From: a phage
Direction: 5' to 3' (one strand)
Assembly: GCA_025699765.1 (NCBI GenBank)
Contig: GCA_025699765.1_4134.1
DNA length: 47,489 nucleotides
Within the stretch, counting starts at the first letter, position 1. The number at the start of each line of letters is the position of its first letter. The notes under the pieces are model-generated. The model was not told the origin of the DNA. It worked only from the letters and a program-made list of their open reading frames with translations, and did no database searches. Both the position numbers and the translations under genes were made by a program. This document shows, one piece after another, positions 2,991-45,366 of this stretch.

Positions 2991-3517
2991 TGCGTTTATC
3001 TCCTTCGTTTACGATGAATCCATTATAGCCATTAACAGCGTTTAGTCAATCGAATACATGTAATTGGTGTGTAATCGCGTGTCTATATTGCTCAAGTTAC
3101 AACCAGCATCAGCAGAATCAATGTCTTAAGTAGATTTTTATGCGCTGTCTATTGCGTAACACTTGTAACCGCTTTTTCTTAGAAATACAGAGATACCTAC
3201 AAATAGAATCCACATTGATTAAATTTTGAACATACATGATAGAAACTTGACGAATCAATCAAATCACCTGTTACACGATAGACAACTGTTACACAACAAT
3301 AATTATATATATAAAGCTAAAATTAAATATTATATATCTATATATATTATATAGAGTTTTTATCATATCTACCTGCGGTCGGATAGGGTCGATTTTGTAA
3401 CACCCCTTCCAGTGACAAAAATATACACCTGTTACACGAAAAATTTTGTAATCCAGCTATTGCAATAAAAGTAAATGCGACATACAATGCAATCACACTA
3501 ACGACGAGGACATACAA
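2991..3517. promoter_or_regulatory. AT-rich divergent control region with short direct and inverted repeats
   Basis: 527 bp non-coding stretch between divergent genes. CTGTTACAC occurs three times (about 3270, 3286, 3430), TGTCTAT twice, and there is a (TA)n-rich core at 3300-3360 containing tatatatattatataga, also found at about 32735. Confidence 0.45.
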
Positions 3518-25301: not shown

Positions 25302-25826
25302 CTACAGCAATCCAATAACCTTGTCTACCGCGTCCTTCATTGCATCCTCAGTAGTGGCTACTACTGTCGATGCGGAGGCTGCCGAGTTTTCGATGTTGAT
25401 TGAGGCTGGCTTGTCGATTCCGAGATCCTTGCCGATAAATGAGGCGTTAATAACGCCGTTTGCGGCAAGCTGAAATTTTTGCTCGTTGATTACCGATTCC
25501 ACGAACTCCATAACCTCACTGTATTCTTCCTCACGCTTCCACTTAATGATTGCGGCCTCGCTTGCACCGATAAACAGTCGATATCCGGTCCAGGTGAAGA
25601 CGCGCGGCTTATGAACAAGCGATTCATAAACGCCACCCTGAAAGCTGGCTGATTCTGAAGCCTTTATCGCGTTGTCCTCAGCCCATTCGAAATACTTCAC
25701 CGATAGATCGAATAGTTGTTCTGGCGTCATCGCACGGTTCTTCGCAAGAACAGTGCCGAATTTTTTCTTGTATAGCTCTTTGAAATTACCTCCCTGGACT
25801 ACGGGAGCATTCTTAGGTTCGCTCAT
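25302..25826 (-). CDS. Terminase small subunit
   Basis: 174-aa ORF immediately upstream of the HNH/large-subunit pair. Start refined to MSEPKNAP with AAAGAGG site. Confidence 0.6.
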   Translation of the reverse strand: MSEPKNAPVVQGGNFKELYKKKFGTVLAKNRAMTPEQLFDLSVKYFEWAEDNAIKASESASFQGGVYESLVHKPRVFTWTGYRLFIGASEAAIIKWKREEEYSEVMEFVESVINEQKFQLAANGVINASFIGKDLGIDKPASINIENSAASASTVVATTEDAMKDAVDKVIGLL

Positions 25827-28082: not shown

Positions 28083-28154
28083 TTTGATTTTCTCTCTTCG
28101 TTGTCGATGAGGTAACTATATCAAATCACCCCATCGACGTTTTAGCAATTCGTG

Positions 28155-28727
28155 CTATTTATTGATGAACGTGGCGGCTATGTGCTGAGCGGTAATTTCT
28201 GGATGACCTTCGACAGAAAAGAAGTCACACTCCTGATAACCGTTGACACCGATCATATCGTCAAGATAGATATAGTCGCGGCTGTCGTTGTCAAAGTTGC
28301 AACCGTTGCGATGGATTCGACACAGCTTGACCTGGATGTCACCTTCAATCATCTGCAAGATCTCGTCTTTGAATCCACCGTCAGTAAATACCGAAAGTGA
28401 ATGCGACTCTTTCACCTTGCTTTCCGCTCGCATACCGAAGAAGCGATTTCCGAACTGCGGCTTGATGACCTCCTCGCTAATCCAGATCATAAACTGGCGC
28501 GGGCTTTTACCGTTCAGGATTGATGCTGGCTCTTCTTTATATCGACGGTCCTCATACAAGAACATGAAATACTCGTAGTTAGCTTCACCCAGGATTGCCC
28601 GGGCAATCTCAAACATTGGCGCTTTGAAGCTGCGTAGCGCTACATGATCGTAAGTGTCAGCCAGGATGCATCCGATAGTGTCCTTTCCTGCGCCAGGCGC
28701 GCCGTTTAAAATGATAGCTGTTTTCAT
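28155..28727 (-). CDS. Deoxynucleoside monophosphate kinase-like P-loop protein (T4 gp1-like)
   Basis: Walker A GAPGAGKDT and an NGKSP motif, both resembling T4 gp1 dNMP kinase (recalled from memory). Confidence 0.6.
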   Translation of the reverse strand: MKTAIILNGAPGAGKDTIGCILADTYDHVALRSFKAPMFEIARAILGEANYEYFMFLYEDRRYKEEPASILNGKSPRQFMIWISEEVIKPQFGNRFFGMRAESKVKESHSLSVFTDGGFKDEILQMIEGDIQVKLCRIHRNGCNFDNDSRDYIYLDDMIGVNGYQECDFFSVEGHPEITAQHIAATFINK

Positions 28728-28835: not shown

Positions 28836-29369
28836 TCATTCATCTACCCCGTGAGATTTTAAATGACTGTGAACGTTATCGCCATAGTCAACTACAGCGT
28901 AAGTGGTTATCCCAAGCGATCTGAATTTTTTTATTATATTCACTGAGTCATCCCAAGCCGCAAGAATGTTTTCAATGCCGATCGCGCGAACCGCCTCCTC
29001 TTTCATCACCGTATCTTTCCGGTTATCGGTGCGCGGACGCATAATCAGGTAATCATATCGCGCACCGTGATGCTTAAGCCATAACTCAGATGCGTAACGC
29101 ACCTCATCACTTCGCCCGGTTAAAATTATTACATGATATCCAGCGGCAAACATGGAGTTCATCACATCGATCGTGCTTTGGATAGGGTTGTCAAATATTG
29201 CAGCGCGGTTAAACTCGGACCAGCTTTCGGTTAAGTGCAAATCCTTTGTAGGTAGCAGGTGAAGTCGACCAGATCCATCGCTAAGTGTTCCGTCAAAGTC
29301 AAAGATTGCTACGCGGCGCGGGCCGAGAAACAGGTTGATTGTCTGGCCCCAAATTGTGATTTTATCCAT
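28836..29369 (-). CDS. HAD-family phosphatase resembling the 3'-phosphatase domain of T4 polynucleotide kinase
   Basis: HAD motif I AIFDFDGTL; further matches to the T4 Pnk phosphatase domain (ILTGRSDE vs VVSGRE; DNRKDTVMKEE vs DTRKDDVVKEE), recalled from memory. Confidence 0.65.
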   Translation of the reverse strand: MDKITIWGQTINLFLGPRRVAIFDFDGTLSDGSGRLHLLPTKDLHLTESWSEFNRAAIFDNPIQSTIDVMNSMFAAGYHVIILTGRSDEVRYASELWLKHHGARYDYLIMRPRTDNRKDTVMKEEAVRAIGIENILAAWDDSVNIIKKFRSLGITTYAVVDYGDNVHSHLKSHGVDE

Positions 29370-29409: not shown

Positions 29410-29535
29410 TTGCGAGGCTACGGTCTACGTTTGCCCCTTCCTTCCTAATGGGTTTTCCCAAGTCAATTTGCTTCGAGGTTTGCGCGGCTCCGGTATACGT
29501 TTGCCGCTTCCTTCTTTTGGGTTTGCCACGAAGCG
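29410..29535. repeat. Tandem imperfect direct repeat (2 x ~60 bp) in the leader of the phosphatase/kinase operon
   Basis: ttgcgaggctacggtctacgtttgccccttccttcc... and ttgcgcggctccggtatacgtttgccgcttccttct... are about 85% identical and adjacent. Confidence 0.5.
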
Positions 29536-29537
29536 TT

Positions 29538-29594
29538 TCGATGGAGTAACTATATCAAGATGCCACGATCCGGTTTTAACAAAAAGTGCTATTC
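29538..29594. repeat. 57-bp exact repeat, copy 1, promoter-like element
   Basis: tcgatggagtaactatatcaagatgccacgatccggttttaacaaaaagtgctattc; the second exact copy is at 31549-31605. Contains TAACA-N5-TGCTA and ACTATA. Confidence 0.7.
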
Positions 29595-29794
29595 GTTTTA
29601 ATAGTGATGCAAAAATAATTTTTTAAGCACGTCACCACGCGCGCTGAATCGACTTGTGGGAGCCTTAAAATCTCGTGGACCAATTGCACTGCCGACACCT
29701 CAGATTTGTAGTAGTGGGCGATTCTGGAGGTATTTGGGCGCATTCCTTCCACTGCGTCGCGTGCTGCATCTTCTGCTGTCATGATAGTAGCCAT
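29576..29794 (-). CDS. Hypothetical ORF, 72 aa (weak)
   Basis: Track ORF whose 3' end overlaps the repeat element; coding status uncertain. Confidence 0.25.
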   Translation of the reverse strand: MATIMTAEDAARDAVEGMRPNTSRIAHYYKSEVSAVQLVHEILRLPQVDSARVVTCLKNYFCITIKTNSTFC

Positions 29795-31522: not shown

Positions 31523-31548
31523 TTTGTTTTCCTCGGTATGTTTCGTTG

Positions 31549-31605
31549 TCGATGGAGTAACTATATCAAGATGCCACGATCCGGTTTTAACAAAAAGTGC
31601 TATTC
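31549..31605. repeat. 57-bp exact repeat, copy 2, promoter-like element
   Basis: Identical to 29538-29594; lies between the 31600 and 31310 genes. Confidence 0.7.
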
Positions 31606-31932: not shown

Positions 31933-32448
31933 TCACAGTCCACACTTTTCGATATGCGCCTTCATCTGGCGAACCAGGTCGCGCACGGTGCTTACAGTCA
32001 CGTCGCCTTTCTCAAGGTCATCAATATCAGGAACAAACGAATCCAGACAATCGGCTATGCTAACTTTTTTCCGACTACGGCGCTTCTTCACTGGAACCTC
32101 TTCGTCAGTAACGGTAACGGTTATCATTGTGATTGCCGACTCATTACGGCCCACCTTCACCTTTGCCACCTTGCCGTACTTGCAGAAGTGCCGGGTAATA
32201 ATCGGAGTGATGAAAGCAGACTTAAATCGCTTCTCCACCTCCTTCCCGTTCGAGGTCAACCATGTTGATGCGCCTCGCTCAATCTCTTCCTCTGTAATAT
32301 CCCGATCTCGGAAGTAAAATTTTACCGCCTCTCTCGCCATATCATCAGCCAAGAAAGAGAACTCGGTCATGCCTTTGTCGCGATACATTTTGTCACAGGT
32401 TAGGCGAATCATGTCGGTGATTTTTAATTCCTGATTGGTATTGCTCAT
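31933..32448 (-). CDS. Hypothetical protein, 171 aa (first gene of leftward early operon)
   Basis: First ORF leftward of the AT-rich control region; basic patch KKRRSRKK. Confidence 0.55.
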   Translation of the reverse strand: MSNTNQELKITDMIRLTCDKMYRDKGMTEFSFLADDMAREAVKFYFRDRDITEEEIERGASTWLTSNGKEVEKRFKSAFITPIITRHFCKYGKVAKVKVGRNESAITMITVTVTDEEVPVKKRRSRKKVSIADCLDSFVPDIDDLEKGDVTVSTVRDLVRQMKAHIEKCGL

Positions 32449-33134
32449 AATATAACCTCTTTGTCTATTCGTGTGTAAATGGCGTCATAACGTGTCAACA
32501 ATTGCCATTGTGACGGCGCAATACAGATATGTCAACGCCTGCGAGCCAATTTTAAGCCGTGTAACATTTGTCTAGCTGTCTAGAGTCACTATAGAAATAT
32601 ATAGCTCCCAAAAAAAGTACTGTATATATAAACATGCAGATAGAAATATGCCAACAGTACGCTAGACAATGTAAGACAACTATACACAACTATTACAATA
32701 TAATTATCTATATATATAAATAAAAAAAACACTATATATATTATATAGATACATATATCTATATGTATATTTAGAGGCGTCACAGTGTGTAATTTTGTCA
32801 CAATGGCGATTCTAGACAAATATTACAGTCGTGACAAGTTAAAGTGTAATCGATAGCACTTTTTGCTAAAAATGGGGATTACTACCAGGCGAACCGGGTA
32901 ACACTAGATCCTCCCTCTCACAATCATTGCATTCTCAGCAACAAATCAACCAACTGTTGCACACCATGCAATAATCACGTTTCATCATTCGAGATCAATC
33001 GGGATCGCAATTATTCCAGATATTCCAGCATTGATGGAATAATGAGCAATTATTGGAATAGCATTTTTTGCTAACGACTTAGCTATGTTGGCAGGGTATG
33101 ATTCATCACATCAACCAGCCAGGAGAATAACAAG
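32449..33134. promoter_or_regulatory. AT-rich divergent control region with nested inverted repeats and two TAGCA-N5-TGCTA sites
   Basis: 686 bp non-coding. Inverted pair gccattgtgac (about 32507) / gtcacaatggc (about 32798); TGTCTAG twice (about 32568) and CTAGACA (about 32660, 32812); (TA)n-rich core 32690-32780; palindromes at about 32862 and 33053. Confidence 0.5.
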
Positions 33135-33515
33135 ATGACAGATTCAAAACTTCAGGCAGCAATTGACCGTGCAAATGAGAAAGGTTTCAAAGTTGTGATT
33201 TACAATCACCGGCCTGTCGGGATAATCCGCCCCCGCAACCGAGTTGTTATTACTCAGCGCGATACCGGGATCATCATTACCAATATTTTCACCATTAAAG
33301 AGCATCAAATCATGATTGATTATATCAATCGACACGTCGAATCGGTTGAGTTCGGAAAGCTGGACGGTGACGAGAAGGATGCTATCATTGAAAACCTTCT
33401 CGAAGAGGTGGGCCTCGCGTTTGAAGAGCGACCGGATAACGGAACGACTCGTTGGGATTGTGATAAGCTGGACGCAATAAACCGCATCCGTGAAATCCTG
33501 GAGGAAAAATTATGA
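33135..33515 (+). CDS. Hypothetical protein, 126 aa (first gene of rightward operon)
   Basis: ORF with AGGAGA site, directly after the control region. Confidence 0.55.
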   Translation: MTDSKLQAAIDRANEKGFKVVIYNHRPVGIIRPRNRVVITQRDTGIIITNIFTIKEHQIMIDYINRHVESVEFGKLDGDEKDAIIENLLEEVGLAFEERPDNGTTRWDCDKLDAINRIREILEEKL

Positions 33516-34221: not shown

Positions 34222-34298
34222 TAGCACAAATTGCTAAATACACACACCGGGGAGTGAGTTATATTACTCCCACACCAAACGAAACAAAGGAATCAAAA

Positions 34299-38638: not shown

Positions 38639-38815
38639 TTAATCTATCTCAATAAATTCCAGGTAGTAACCATTCAGAGGTGCTTGGATTACTGAGCCTC
38701 TACCGTCGTAAATCTCAAACAATCCCCCACCGAAATCATAACCAACACTATAGATCTGATTTACGCGGAATGGAAGTGTTTTGGAGTCATTTCGGATGCA
38801 CTTAACTCGTTTCAT
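38639..38815 (-). CDS. Hypothetical small protein, about 58 aa (below track cutoff), first ORF of lysis transcript
   Basis: Hand translation MKRVKCIRNDSKTLPFRVNQIYSVGYDFGGGLFEIYDGRGSVIQAPLNGYYLEFIEID; AAAGAGG site upstream. Confidence 0.3.
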   Translation of the reverse strand: MKRVKCIRNDSKTLPFRVNQIYSVGYDFGGGLFEIYDGRGSVIQAPLNGYYLEFIEID

Positions 38816-38880
38816 GATATGTAGCCTCTTTGTTTTTGATGTGGTTACTATACCCGAATCCCTTCGGGCGTTTTTATCAA

Positions 38881-40032
38881 TTAGTGCGATCCTGTCATTT
38901 CTGGACGGTAGATGAATCGACCTATCTCACCAAATTTCTTGTCGTAAACGATTACCGCCGCCTGACGATATGAGCGCCACCCGCCGCGCGCGGCGTATGC
39001 ATCCTTCGCTCCTAACTGACCGTGAACCTCATCGATACCTAACGAGTGTTCAGTGATTGTCTGATGATGCCAGTGACCGCTATGAGTATACACATACTTG
39101 CTCTCTCCGAAGTCTGCACGGAAGTCTGCCGCCATCGCTGCAAGTCGCGTGTCTGCCTTTTTCATAGTGTGCCCGTGAGTGTATCCCAATAAGGTGTTTC
39201 CCCATCGAGTCTTATGCAGAATCATAGGGCTAACGTCAACGAATACTCGCGGCTCGTCTTCATAATATGCCGACATTGCAGCACGTAGCCAAATCATCCC
39301 GGCCTGGTCGTGGTTCCCTTCAATAATCTGAACCTCGACTTCTTTGTGTTTCATAAGCATTTTGTCGATAGCGCGACGCACAGAACGGATCGCAACATGC
39401 ACCAATTTTGCGTATCGTGAATCCTGATCCAGAACGTGACCGCTTGCCGGGGTAACAGCATCAAGACTGTCCGAGTGAAGGAAGTCACCGCCAATTAACA
39501 GAACAGCCTTCTCTGCGTTAGGGGCAATATCGATCGCGTAATTGAAGAAGTCGCTAAGCACTTTTTCCGCTACGTCGGTAGAGTAGTTCTCTCCGCATTC
39601 ATGCTTATGAGCAAGCGCACCAATATGGAGATCGAATACCGGATAGAGTGCCAACTTACCCATCGCTGTCGTAAGTCCTTGTGAGGTTAGTAGTTCAGTT
39701 GGCTTTGCTCGCGGCAGGTCTTCACAGAATGCAATGCGCGCCGCTTCCATCATTGCCGCAATCTTCTCGCGGTCCTGATCGGTCTTTACCCAGCGCACTA
39801 CCTCGGTCCCATCACCTCGAATCATCGTCGACGTGCCTTTTACCATGAATCCCTCGGGAACGTTTTTAGCAACATGCTCGTTACCGTGAAAATGACCTTC
39901 TTTTGCCAGCTTGGCGTGACGCGCTTCAACAGTGCGAATGTGCATGCCGTATTTTTCCGCGATCTCTCGAAGTGTTAGGCCGCTCATGCGCTCTTCGATA
40001 AGTTGCTCGGTAGTGATTTTAGCTTGTGACAT
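38881..40032 (-). CDS. HTH-metallophosphoesterase fusion protein
   Basis: N-terminal helix-turn-helix (LTLREIAEKYGMHIRTVEARHAKL) fused to a calcineurin-like phosphoesterase domain (DLHIG; GGDFLHSD; EGNHD; GHTHG; GHWHH). Confidence 0.7.
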   Translation of the reverse strand: MSQAKITTEQLIEERMSGLTLREIAEKYGMHIRTVEARHAKLAKEGHFHGNEHVAKNVPEGFMVKGTSTMIRGDGTEVVRWVKTDQDREKIAAMMEAARIAFCEDLPRAKPTELLTSQGLTTAMGKLALYPVFDLHIGALAHKHECGENYSTDVAEKVLSDFFNYAIDIAPNAEKAVLLIGGDFLHSDSLDAVTPASGHVLDQDSRYAKLVHVAIRSVRRAIDKMLMKHKEVEVQIIEGNHDQAGMIWLRAAMSAYYEDEPRVFVDVSPMILHKTRWGNTLLGYTHGHTMKKADTRLAAMAADFRADFGESKYVYTHSGHWHHQTITEHSLGIDEVHGQLGAKDAYAARGGWRSYRQAAVIVYDKKFGEIGRFIYRPEMTGSH

Positions 40033-40817: not shown

Positions 40818-40868
40818 CTTGTCTCAATGAAATAACTATACCCGACTTTCGCCGGGTATTTTTAGCAA

Positions 40869-41120
40869 TTAGTGCTGAACGATCGTATCTGCTTTAAGTT
40901 CATCTACGTCTTTCTGGATAATTGAAGGCCAATTCTCGATATGTTCATTTTTTATCTCATCGAAAGACATATCAAGAGAACTAGTGAAATCCCACAGATC
41001 GCAACCAATAACATCCTGAGTCAATCCGTTTCGCTCCATAATTTCGCAGCACGTAGCTCGATAAAGTAGCCATAAACCTTGATCAGTTAACTTAACAGGA
41101 ATCATTTTCTCGTTAATCAT
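40869..41120 (-). CDS. Hypothetical protein, 83 aa
   Basis: ORF with ATGA overlap to the upstream methyltransferase gene. Confidence 0.45.
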   Translation of the reverse strand: MINEKMIPVKLTDQGLWLLYRATCCEIMERNGLTQDVIGCDLWDFTSSLDMSFDEIKNEHIENWPSIIQKDVDELKADTIVQH

Positions 41121-41830: not shown

Positions 41831-41897
41831 TTTTAGTCCTCTCGTTTTGGTGAAATAATAATGCCATATTCCATTCCGGCAGTTTTAACAAAAAGTG

Positions 41898-42329
41898 CTA
41901 TTTCATCATTTCGTAGATTGAGATCTTGAATTGCGCGAATCCGTATGCGACGGCAGAGAAGCCGCCACGCTCCCGGACCTTTCGAAGAAACTCCCTTTGC
42001 TTGTCGCTGACTGGTGACGCCTTTCCTTTGCCTGACTTATTAACCCGCTTTAGTTCTATTGCTGCAAACGGGTATTTTGAGTTGACACCAATCAGGATAA
42101 CGAAGTCTGACACGCCTTTAAGCAATCCGGCCTGCTCATCCCTGAGCGCCGATGTGATTGTTTTTTCACCTTCATTGACAGTGTGCCAAAATAGAAGGTG
42201 CGGGAAGTTGTATTTCAGCCAGGACACGCAATCTACCTGGTGAGCATCCTCCTTTCGCATGTCGCTTGGATCTCGTTCGTAAAATTCTAAGTAATCGCCT
42301 TTATCAGTTACTGACATTCTTATCTCCAT
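41898..42329 (-). CDS. VRR-NUC domain nuclease
   Basis: PD-(D/E)XK-type core ...GVSDFVILIGV...AIELK...; size typical of VRR-NUC proteins. Confidence 0.6.
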   Translation of the reverse strand: MEIRMSVTDKGDYLEFYERDPSDMRKEDAHQVDCVSWLKYNFPHLLFWHTVNEGEKTITSALRDEQAGLLKGVSDFVILIGVNSKYPFAAIELKRVNKSGKGKASPVSDKQREFLRKVRERGGFSAVAYGFAQFKISIYEMMK

Positions 42330-44819: not shown

Positions 44820-44913
44820 GGCTATTTAATCCTTTGAATCGTTGTATCGTTTACGCTATAATACACGACATACAGTAAACGTTTTTAGCAAAAAGTGCTA
44901 CAGGAGAATTAAG

Positions 44914-45366
44914 ATGAATATGCAACGTATCGCAGAGTCAACTGGTGAAATCGATAAACGTCACATTAATGGTAACAACGGAACGCGACGCGGTAAAGAC
45001 AAAAAGCCTCGGCAGCGCTGCGGCTTCTATATTCATAAAGAAGAAACACGAGCGGGACTGCGAGCGCGACTTGACGCTCTTATTGAATATTACGGCGGCC
45101 CAGCGGCCTGCGCAAAAGCTCTGAAGGTTAGCAATCAGACCGTGCAAGGATGGAAAGATCGCAACATGATTTCGTGGCAAGGTGCTGAAGCTGCGCATCG
45201 TGCTTACCGCCGTCAGGGGTGTAAAGGATTCCGCGCCGCATGGCTGCGATTCGACCTGAAGTTTGACGGTAACGGCAAATGCCTTGAGAAGAGATGCAAG
45301 AATAAGAAATTTATGCGCGTCGTGAAGAAGGAAGATATCGGAACGACCAATAGCATTTTTAGTTAA
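44914..45366 (+). CDS. Cro/YdaS-like HTH DNA-binding protein (candidate transcription regulator)
   Basis: YYGGPAACAKALKVSNQTVQGWKDRNMIS resembles Cro/YdaS-type HTH; basic N-terminal region. Start refined to MNMQRIA with AGGAGA site; palindrome elements lie on both sides. Confidence 0.55.
   Translation: MNMQRIAESTGEIDKRHINGNNGTRRGKDKKPRQRCGFYIHKEETRAGLRARLDALIEYYGGPAACAKALKVSNQTVQGWKDRNMISWQGAEAAHRAYRRQGCKGFRAAWLRFDLKFDGNGKCLEKRCKNKKFMRVVKKEDIGTTNSIFS

Follow-up and report, generated by a model that had tools for sequence, protein, structure and literature searches.

What does the long non-coding gap do at which two early operons of a T1-like phage run apart: does it switch transcription, start DNA replication, or serve another end such as packaging? 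We addressed this question in a stretch of 47,489 bp, hereafter called the window (contig GCA_025699765.1_4134.1 of assembly GCA_025699765.1), which is the near-complete genome of a T1-like siphophage (Drexlerviridae, Tunavirus) whose best DNA matches are vB_EcoS_SA30RD, pSf-2, and further Escherichia and Shigella Tunaviruses. The gap, hereafter region A (32449-33134), extends exactly from a leftward open reading frame (ORF; 31933-32448, 171 aa) to a rightward one (33135-33515, 126 aa) and corresponds to the ORF77-ORF1 intergenic position in the numbering of the T1 genome paper. An earlier reading of the letters alone (the original prediction) had proposed that this region separates two operons, which holds, as outward-facing blocks of small genes adjoin it where the T1 map opens; its description as 686 bp of AT-rich DNA is accurate for ~32562-32875, but the right 260 bp have a normal G+C content. 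The main new result is that short repeated sites around the AT-rich centre are fixed in position, at what we term "stations", and lineage-dependent in sequence in 10 of 11 related lineages. In the window, this central module consists of the following elements, with distances given from the core centre:

32569..32583, plus strand: outer-left station, two tandem copies of TGTCTAG at 8-bp spacing (~-149 and -141)
32662..32668, minus strand: inner-left station, one inverted CTAGACA (~-55)
32690..32775, no strand: AT core, whose G+C-poorest 60 nt contain 5 G+C; a 17-mer shared with a second intergenic region, region B, lies within it
32812..32818, minus strand: right station, CTAGACA (~+95)

The AT core, ~85 bp long, is where the duplex would open most readily. 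By nearest-neighbour stability, 32672-32771 is the least stable 100-bp duplex of the window (z 5.7), followed by the core of region B (z 5.0) and only then by a next best value of ~3, so that the unwinding-prone, TA-rich core of the original prediction is borne out. All 11 upstream types compared below retain an AT core, with 3-10 G+C per 60 nt, its identity being 89% between the window and the T1 lineages and ~55% towards other lineages. Many of the TA-rich repeats within the core are of low complexity, and overlapping-arm palindromes lie at 32704-32725; the "two palindrome sites" proposed earlier had been given no positions.

The sites at the stations contain G+C and are of another kind. TGTCTAG at 32569 and 32577 (plus strand) and CTAGACA at 32662 and 32812, predicted as two copies in each orientation, are present as placed and make up four of the five copies in the whole 47.5-kb window, and among 300 dinucleotide-shuffled versions of the 405-nt arm, not one reached four copies of any 7-mer.

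Relatives were collected with a strict anchor taken from the conserved right half of region A, which gave 47 loci with 11 upstream types; a loose anchor (TATTCCA N1-2 TATTCCA) searched against viral contigs matched almost exclusively unrelated DNA, and the stricter one was used. In nine of the 11 types, a type-specific 8-9-mer occurs in at least three copies (matched in at most 7 of 200 shuffles, mostly in at most 2); a tenth type has two, placed at these stations as well, and the remaining one shows none. For instance, the T1 lineage carries GTTAATCG three times in tandem, once inverted, and once more past the core, the phiL/DELF2/SH6 lineage has two copies of TGCAACCGA at the outer-left station, and a metagenomic lineage uses TGTCTAGCT. 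In the Klebsiella Webervirus, where the AT core and the stations are present too, the motif is GGTAAGATT. Outer-left copies lie at about -140 to -230 from the core centre (to -277 in locus L193), often as two or three tandem units 9 bp apart, inner-left copies at -40 to -60, usually inverted, and right copies at +73 to +113. Thus, the expectation that the repeats should be conserved in relatives needs to be divided: the TGTCTAG sequence itself is lineage-specific, whereas the placement of sites on both sides of the core is conserved (10/11).

Stations that stay in place with differing site sequences point to a sequence-specific protein, and we consider it likely that they are protein-binding sites. 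Specifically, a phage-encoded, lineage-specific DNA-binding protein would occupy the stations and organise the core, which would melt and bend easily between them.

The same design exists a second time in this genome, in the other divergent region that the original prediction had linked to region A by a common 17-mer:

2991..3517, no strand: region B, a module paralogous to that of region A and flanked by leftward recE and rightward cor, with an AT core at 3271-3370

The 17-mer TATATATATTATATAGA is indeed found at 32733-32749 and at 3339-3355, exceeds chance (0 of 100 shuffles), and forms part of 81 nt over which the two AT cores are 76% similar. Region B follows the station plan of region A, with GTAACA/TGTTAC at -167, -54/-36 (inverted), +74, and +107 from its core centre and TGTCTA at -243, -177, and -44 (inverted), and would represent a second, constant module of the same design. 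Eight of the 13 genome copies of TGTCTA fall in these two hubs. We considered whether co-variation of the repeats in A and B proves a common lineage-specific factor, and rejected this, as region B is 92-94% identical in all Tunavirus lineages. As a separate observation, TGTCTA/TAGACA is depleted outside the two hubs, with 5 copies in ~46 kb where ~22 are expected. Neither the fixed-station plan nor its A/B duplication was found in the searchable literature.

Two further elements lie in the arms of region A:

32504-32514, plus strand: left arm of an 11-mer inverted pair, GCCATTGTGAC, with its partner at 32797-32807
32619..32636, no strand: conserved element ACTGTATATATAAACATG, LexA-box-like

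The 11-mer pair, which the original prediction had put first, is present as placed and sits in 22-nt arms that are 86% complementary and 282 nt apart, but it is weak alone: at least two genome-wide matches with at most one mismatch arise in 25 of 100 shuffles, and its right arm shows two uncompensated changes in the close relatives pSf-2, IME18, and EF3-1, so it is not maintained there. ACTGTATATATAAACATG is 90% identical between the window and the T1 lineages and 76-81% towards types 4a and 4b. It was tried as a LexA box and rejected, since 32620-32635 reads CTGT-N8-ACAT, one mismatch from CTGT-N8-ACAG, and the CAT in place of the essential CAG is conserved in four lineages. All in all, the repeats listed in the original prediction were found where it had placed them, and its interpretation is partly supported.

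Which function fits this module best? The reading that we favour, tentatively and still short of probable, is that region A is an early control region whose centre forms a nucleoprotein element, either of the origin type or looped; that the central module itself acts as a replication origin we regard, with a little more reserve, as possible. The centre (32560-32850) would then act in origin-type unwinding, its iteron-like sites lying beside an unwinding element. Origins built from iterons and an unwinding element, with a matched initiator gene next to them, are known from the lambdoid O/ori and from SPP1, whose oriL and oriR are bound by G38P, and in archaeal oriC inverted ORB sites flank the unwinding element next to orc1/cdc6. 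What is expected of an iteron origin, namely repeated short specific sites next to an AT-rich unwinding element, was found in region A. Here, too, tandem and inverted short sites flank an AT-rich core next to a lineage-variable gene, the site sequence changes among close relatives with the architecture kept, and, as in SPP1, there are two modules per genome. In contrast to those origins, the sites are only 7-9 bp long, sites for DnaA and integration host factor (IHF) are lacking, and the adjacent gene co-varies imperfectly. Furthermore, T1 encodes its own helicase and primase and was reported to persist as a stable extrachromosomal element, for which a replicon function is needed. Since the core is more AT-rich and longer than promoters need, and no conserved strong promoter lies there, we place the origin reading slightly ahead of a transcriptional one. 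The TLS paper found no iterons (PMC11447400), and the SU57 paper found no oriC-like site.

A considerable number of observations speak against an origin, or against the lineage-specific reader that it calls for. DnaA-like boxes at one mismatch number 4 with 1.3 expected, which we judged not to be an enrichment; region A has no match to the IHF consensus and none to that of Fis, and its three GATC sites in 686 bp are not enriched over the genome mean of 5.1 per kb. The GC skew goes with the orientation of the genes and does not mark out the site, and searches of PLSDB plasmids and complete E. coli genomes did not find region A there; the contig is probably a phage that came into a draft assembly as a contaminant or in a carrier state. 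In addition, region B lies at the recE promoter, which experiments in T1 have shown to be repressed by Pir and by cAMP-CRP, and because this promoter is so regulated, region B speaks for a transcriptional role no less than for an origin. Among the genes within ~2.5 kb, none was found to go with the motif type, and the adjacent gene does so imperfectly: TGTCTAG is common to the window type and type 4b, whose adjacent proteins are only 49% identical, and types 4a and 4b have adjacent proteins 74% identical and different station motifs. Three further candidates were each rejected as the lineage-specific factor. Pir (window 44914-45366) is 96-100% identical in all lineages, Orf65 is absent from the window and present in all groups without tracking the lineages, and the small terminase subunit TerS (25305-25826) is near-identical despite wholly different station motifs, at 95% between T1 and the window phage and 99% between SH6 and T1; because TerS is so conserved while the motifs differ completely, the stations are not TerS sites.

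The adjacent gene itself is the following:

31933..32448, minus strand: first leftward gene, 171 aa, counterpart of T1 ORF77 (PHROG 11083, function unknown)

Its product has only a sub-threshold Pfam match to DUF7174, its AF2 model (pLDDT 82) has no significant structural neighbour, and neither Pfam nor structure comparison detected a helix-turn-helix or other regulator domain. The positional counterparts (171-195 aa, starting 534-644 nt from the anchor) differ in every lineage and form at least three sequence families between which no homology was detectable. Remote homology between the Tunavirus-type and the Webervirus-type counterparts was tried and rejected at an hhalign probability of 0.5%, and so was the N-terminus as specificity determinant, as P0054 and P0056 have near-identical N-terminal halves and different motifs.

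With respect to the two regulators, Pir is P22 C2-like and in T1 activates hol and dam and represses its own promoter and that of recE; Orf65 was described in a T1 study as a transcription regulator repressing pir. Nearly all relatives have Orf65; in the window it is missing between the PNK phosphatase gene (28836-29369) and the orf66-like gene (29576-29794). In PQ571291 (EF3-1), the Orf65 homolog at 38783-39226 is labelled "replication initiation protein".

The flanks of region A hold the elements by which transcription in both directions would begin, two of which are copies of a 21-nt intergenic repeat described for TLS, T1, Rtp, and Rogue1 (aaATAGCACnnnTTGnTAAAA; PMC11447400):

32507..32535, minus strand: predicted sigma70-like promoter of the leftward operon, TTGACA-17-CACAAT, 10/12 in the consensus scan
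32851..32871, plus strand: orphan 21-nt repeat with its core TAGCACTTTTTGCTA at 32854-32868, 0 mismatches to aaATAGCACnnnTTGnTAAAA
33056..33102, plus strand: predicted canonical T1-type promoter of the rightward operon, with the 21-nt repeat core at 33059-33073 and the -10 hexamer TATGAT at 33097-33102
33121..33137, plus strand: Shine-Dalgarno sequence AGGAG with the start codon of the 126-aa gene that heads the rightward operon (no assigned function)

Region A is, very probably, a composite early control region that holds both promoters. On its left flank, the 32535-32507 promoter would drive the first leftward gene: its -10 hexamer, 59 nt before the start codon, shares sequence with the left arm of the 11-mer pair, the records of SA30RD and SA32RD annotate the homologous site as a promoter, and four of the 11 lineages have a leftward promoter of at least 10/12 close to the gene. 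A second leftward match (TTGTCA-17-TAGAAT, 32837-32809) overlaps the right station and recurs in two of the 11. Together, the sigma70 matches in region A number six with 4.7 expected in shuffles, which is no excess, and a scan of the region for CRP sites gave no support. On the right flank, the 21-nt element near -42 together with TATGAT would drive the rightward operon. The 33059-33073 copy has one mismatch to aaATAGCACnnnTTGnTAAAA, is followed by TATGAT 23 nt later, and is conserved as a promoter element in all lineages examined; its core begins 76 nt 5' of the ATG at 33135, the distance, like the consensus and the orientation, agreeing with what was reported for TLS (PMC11447400). Thus, promoter elements for both directions stand on the flanks, but no strong sigma70 promoter in or facing the AT core is positionally conserved across the 11 lineages; hence, the "early-promoter hub" of the original prediction suits the flanks, not the core. 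A literature search found no transcription start study of T1-like phages.

These elements invite the explanation that the whole region is purely a transcriptional switch, in which an early repressor or activator uses the stations as its operators, and proteins bound at ~-55 and +95 loop the core. Such a loop, built like the gal or ara repressosome, would control divergent early transcription, perhaps with a role in co-infection exclusion, and the core would have no part in replication. Looped repressor complexes over divergent or overlapping promoters are exemplified by the gal repressosome and by lambda OL-OR, and the likeness is considerable, as the promoter region is divergent and its flexible AT-rich segment has sites on either side, ~150 bp apart. 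Moreover, in two lineages the right station coincides in part with a leftward sigma70-like match, the recE promoter with its repressors lies in region B, and immunity-type regulators typically diverge in operator specificity between close relatives. Unlike in the known loops, no conserved promoter lies inside the putative one and the AT tract is much longer, ~85 bp at ~90% A+T being, by our estimate, far above what a promoter or the apex of a loop usually needs. The core is also remote from both genes, its distance to the start codon being 240-330 bp for the leftward gene and 360-445 bp for the rightward one, the adjacent gene lacks a regulator domain, and Pir and Orf65 do not co-vary with the sites. 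We therefore regard an exclusively transcriptional role of the central module as rather unlikely.

Before the remaining explanations are considered, the 21-nt repeat deserves attention, as the original prediction had overlooked both copies, along with the TATTCCA cluster and the T1 genome-start (pac-region) landmark treated below. Known beforehand were the opening of the T1 map in the ORF77-ORF1 gap, the 21-nt repeat, and Pir; the function of the repeat is unexplained and was listed as an unanswered question in the TLS reannotation paper (PMC11447400). About 15 copies occur in the window, each oriented with its downstream genes. What can be added is that the element is centred near -42, with the -10 hexamer 22-23 nt downstream in canonical copies: in a geometry derived from the window copies, a -10-like hexamer follows TTGnTA after exactly 22-23 nt, and this spacing puts the quasi-palindrome TAGCA-N5-TGCTA near -42, in what would be the geometry of a class II activator site. 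Pir is an obvious candidate for its binding protein. The 32854-32868 copy departs from the published repeat, having no -10 hexamer within 17-28 nt and no ORF in the next 200 nt; we call it an orphan because a -10 at the canonical distance is missing. It is the most conserved element of region A, with a mean identity of 0.92 across five lineages, and no such orphan site was found in the searchable literature.

Further copies of the repeat core lie at 28143-28157, 29577-29591, 31588-31602, 40863-40877, 41886-41900, and 44886-44900 (all minus strand) and at 34222-34236 (plus strand). The helicase and pir genes, which run apart, have one copy of the repeat between them. Two copies of a 62-bp direct repeat lie at 29534-29594 and 31544-31605; they are 98% identical, and each includes a 21-nt-repeat promoter.

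To the right of the orphan repeat, region A is conserved in a manner unlike its centre. Block conservation was measured on the aligned region in 17 sequences from five lineages and is given as mean identity between lineages:

Arms flanking the core: 0.34-0.44
32690-32775: AT core block, 0.57 (0.89 between the window and the T1 lineages)
32851-32874: orphan 21-nt repeat block, 0.92
32906-32985: block holding the T1 map start, 0.77
33011-33058: TATTCCA cluster block, 0.84
33059-33076: second 21-nt repeat, 0.87

Within these blocks, two features stand out:

32906..32985, no strand: conserved non-coding block with the inverted repeat 32923-32943 / 32955-32975, from alignment and repeat scan
33012..33060, no strand: four TATTCCA sites, direct at 33012 and 33021 and inverted at 33035 and 33054, 4 of the 13 genome copies

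The clustering of TATTCCA is significant (Poisson P ~1e-5), the cluster is also conserved in the Klebsiella Webervirus, and the non-coding right half as a whole is more conserved than the neighbouring genes. We considered a non-coding RNA or a small protein as the cause and rejected both: the ORF check of the right half found no credible ORF, folding of the two strands gave z values of -1.0 and -0.8, and Rfam returned no match at the gathering threshold or at E <= 1. With no ORF, no fold signal, and no Rfam match, the right half most likely works at the DNA level. Packaging initiation or control of the rightward promoter may reasonably be proposed for the right-centre block, and most likely the stretch 32851-33060, which all lineages conserve, would serve one of these purposes or both.

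This leads to the explanation that the entire non-coding gap is a pac region, that is, the site that terminase would recognise and bend to make its first headful cut, in the manner of lambda cosB or the pac sites of P1 and SPP1. The pac site of P1 has hexamer repeats on both sides of the cut, and that of SPP1 is composed of pacL, pacC, and pacR; the T1 map start similarly lies in a conserved block flanked by the four TATTCCA sites, and arrays of AATCA adjoin it in relatives. The T1 records AY216660, MK213796, and MN153797 begin and end inside the ORF77-ORF1 gap, as do those of JMPW1, JMPW2, phi2457T, and FCWL1, and that of Chapo ends there. By alignment, the first base of T1 falls at the junction of window positions 32972 and 32973, within the invariant GCAAT/AATCAC (the slash marks the junction), and several relatives open at the same point. 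MK213796 annotates its bases 1-2800 as a repeat region, marking them as the terminal repeat, and the SU57 paper places the T1 pac in this untranslated region. Later records, though, may merely copy the T1 orientation. Unlike in the known headful systems, the block is ~7 kb away from the terminase genes, and the variable stations do not track TerS and so cannot be its sites; the conserved TATTCCA cluster could be sites of this kind. Moreover, region B repeats the design ~18 kb away around the circular map. At best, packaging explains the right-centre block, not the central module, and as an account of the whole gap we find it improbable.

Two observations concern the sequence right of the T1 start. 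At 32991-33009, two adjacent heptamers change together among relatives, reading GAGATCA/GGGATCG (two Dam sites) in the window and T1 and being of the GCAATCA/ACAATCA type in other relatives. AATCA[AC] units, on the plus strand only, number seven in the Webervirus (locus L036, Klebsiella phage VAC2, 1700-1810), five in the DELF2 lineage (locus L022), and two in the window, and could be packaging-related repeats.

That region A is a spacer without function, shaped by slippage and low-complexity repeats and conserved through recent divergence, was already disfavoured and is very improbable, for although the 11-mer pair decays in close relatives, the sigma70 matches hardly exceed shuffles, and much of the core is of low complexity, 10 of 11 lineages, with another genus among them, show the station plan with differing motifs, the G+C-containing motif copies are significantly more numerous than in dinucleotide shuffles, TGTCTA is depleted in the rest of the genome, and the non-coding right half surpasses its neighbouring genes in conservation.

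Among the classic T phages, T1 is the one understood least, and the region mapped here makes its replication and early control directly testable. If the central module is an origin, it would explain how T1 persists outside the chromosome. Going further, T1-like phages may carry two paralogous origin- or centromere-like modules, of which module A would be an exchangeable specificity cassette read by a rapidly diversifying early protein; we consider this unlikely. Were it true, module A would define replication, incompatibility, or exclusion groups among near-identical "virulent" phages and would supply the replicon function on which the plasmid-like carriage reported for T1 depends. Such knowledge could also aid the engineering or containment of T1-like phages as laboratory contaminants.

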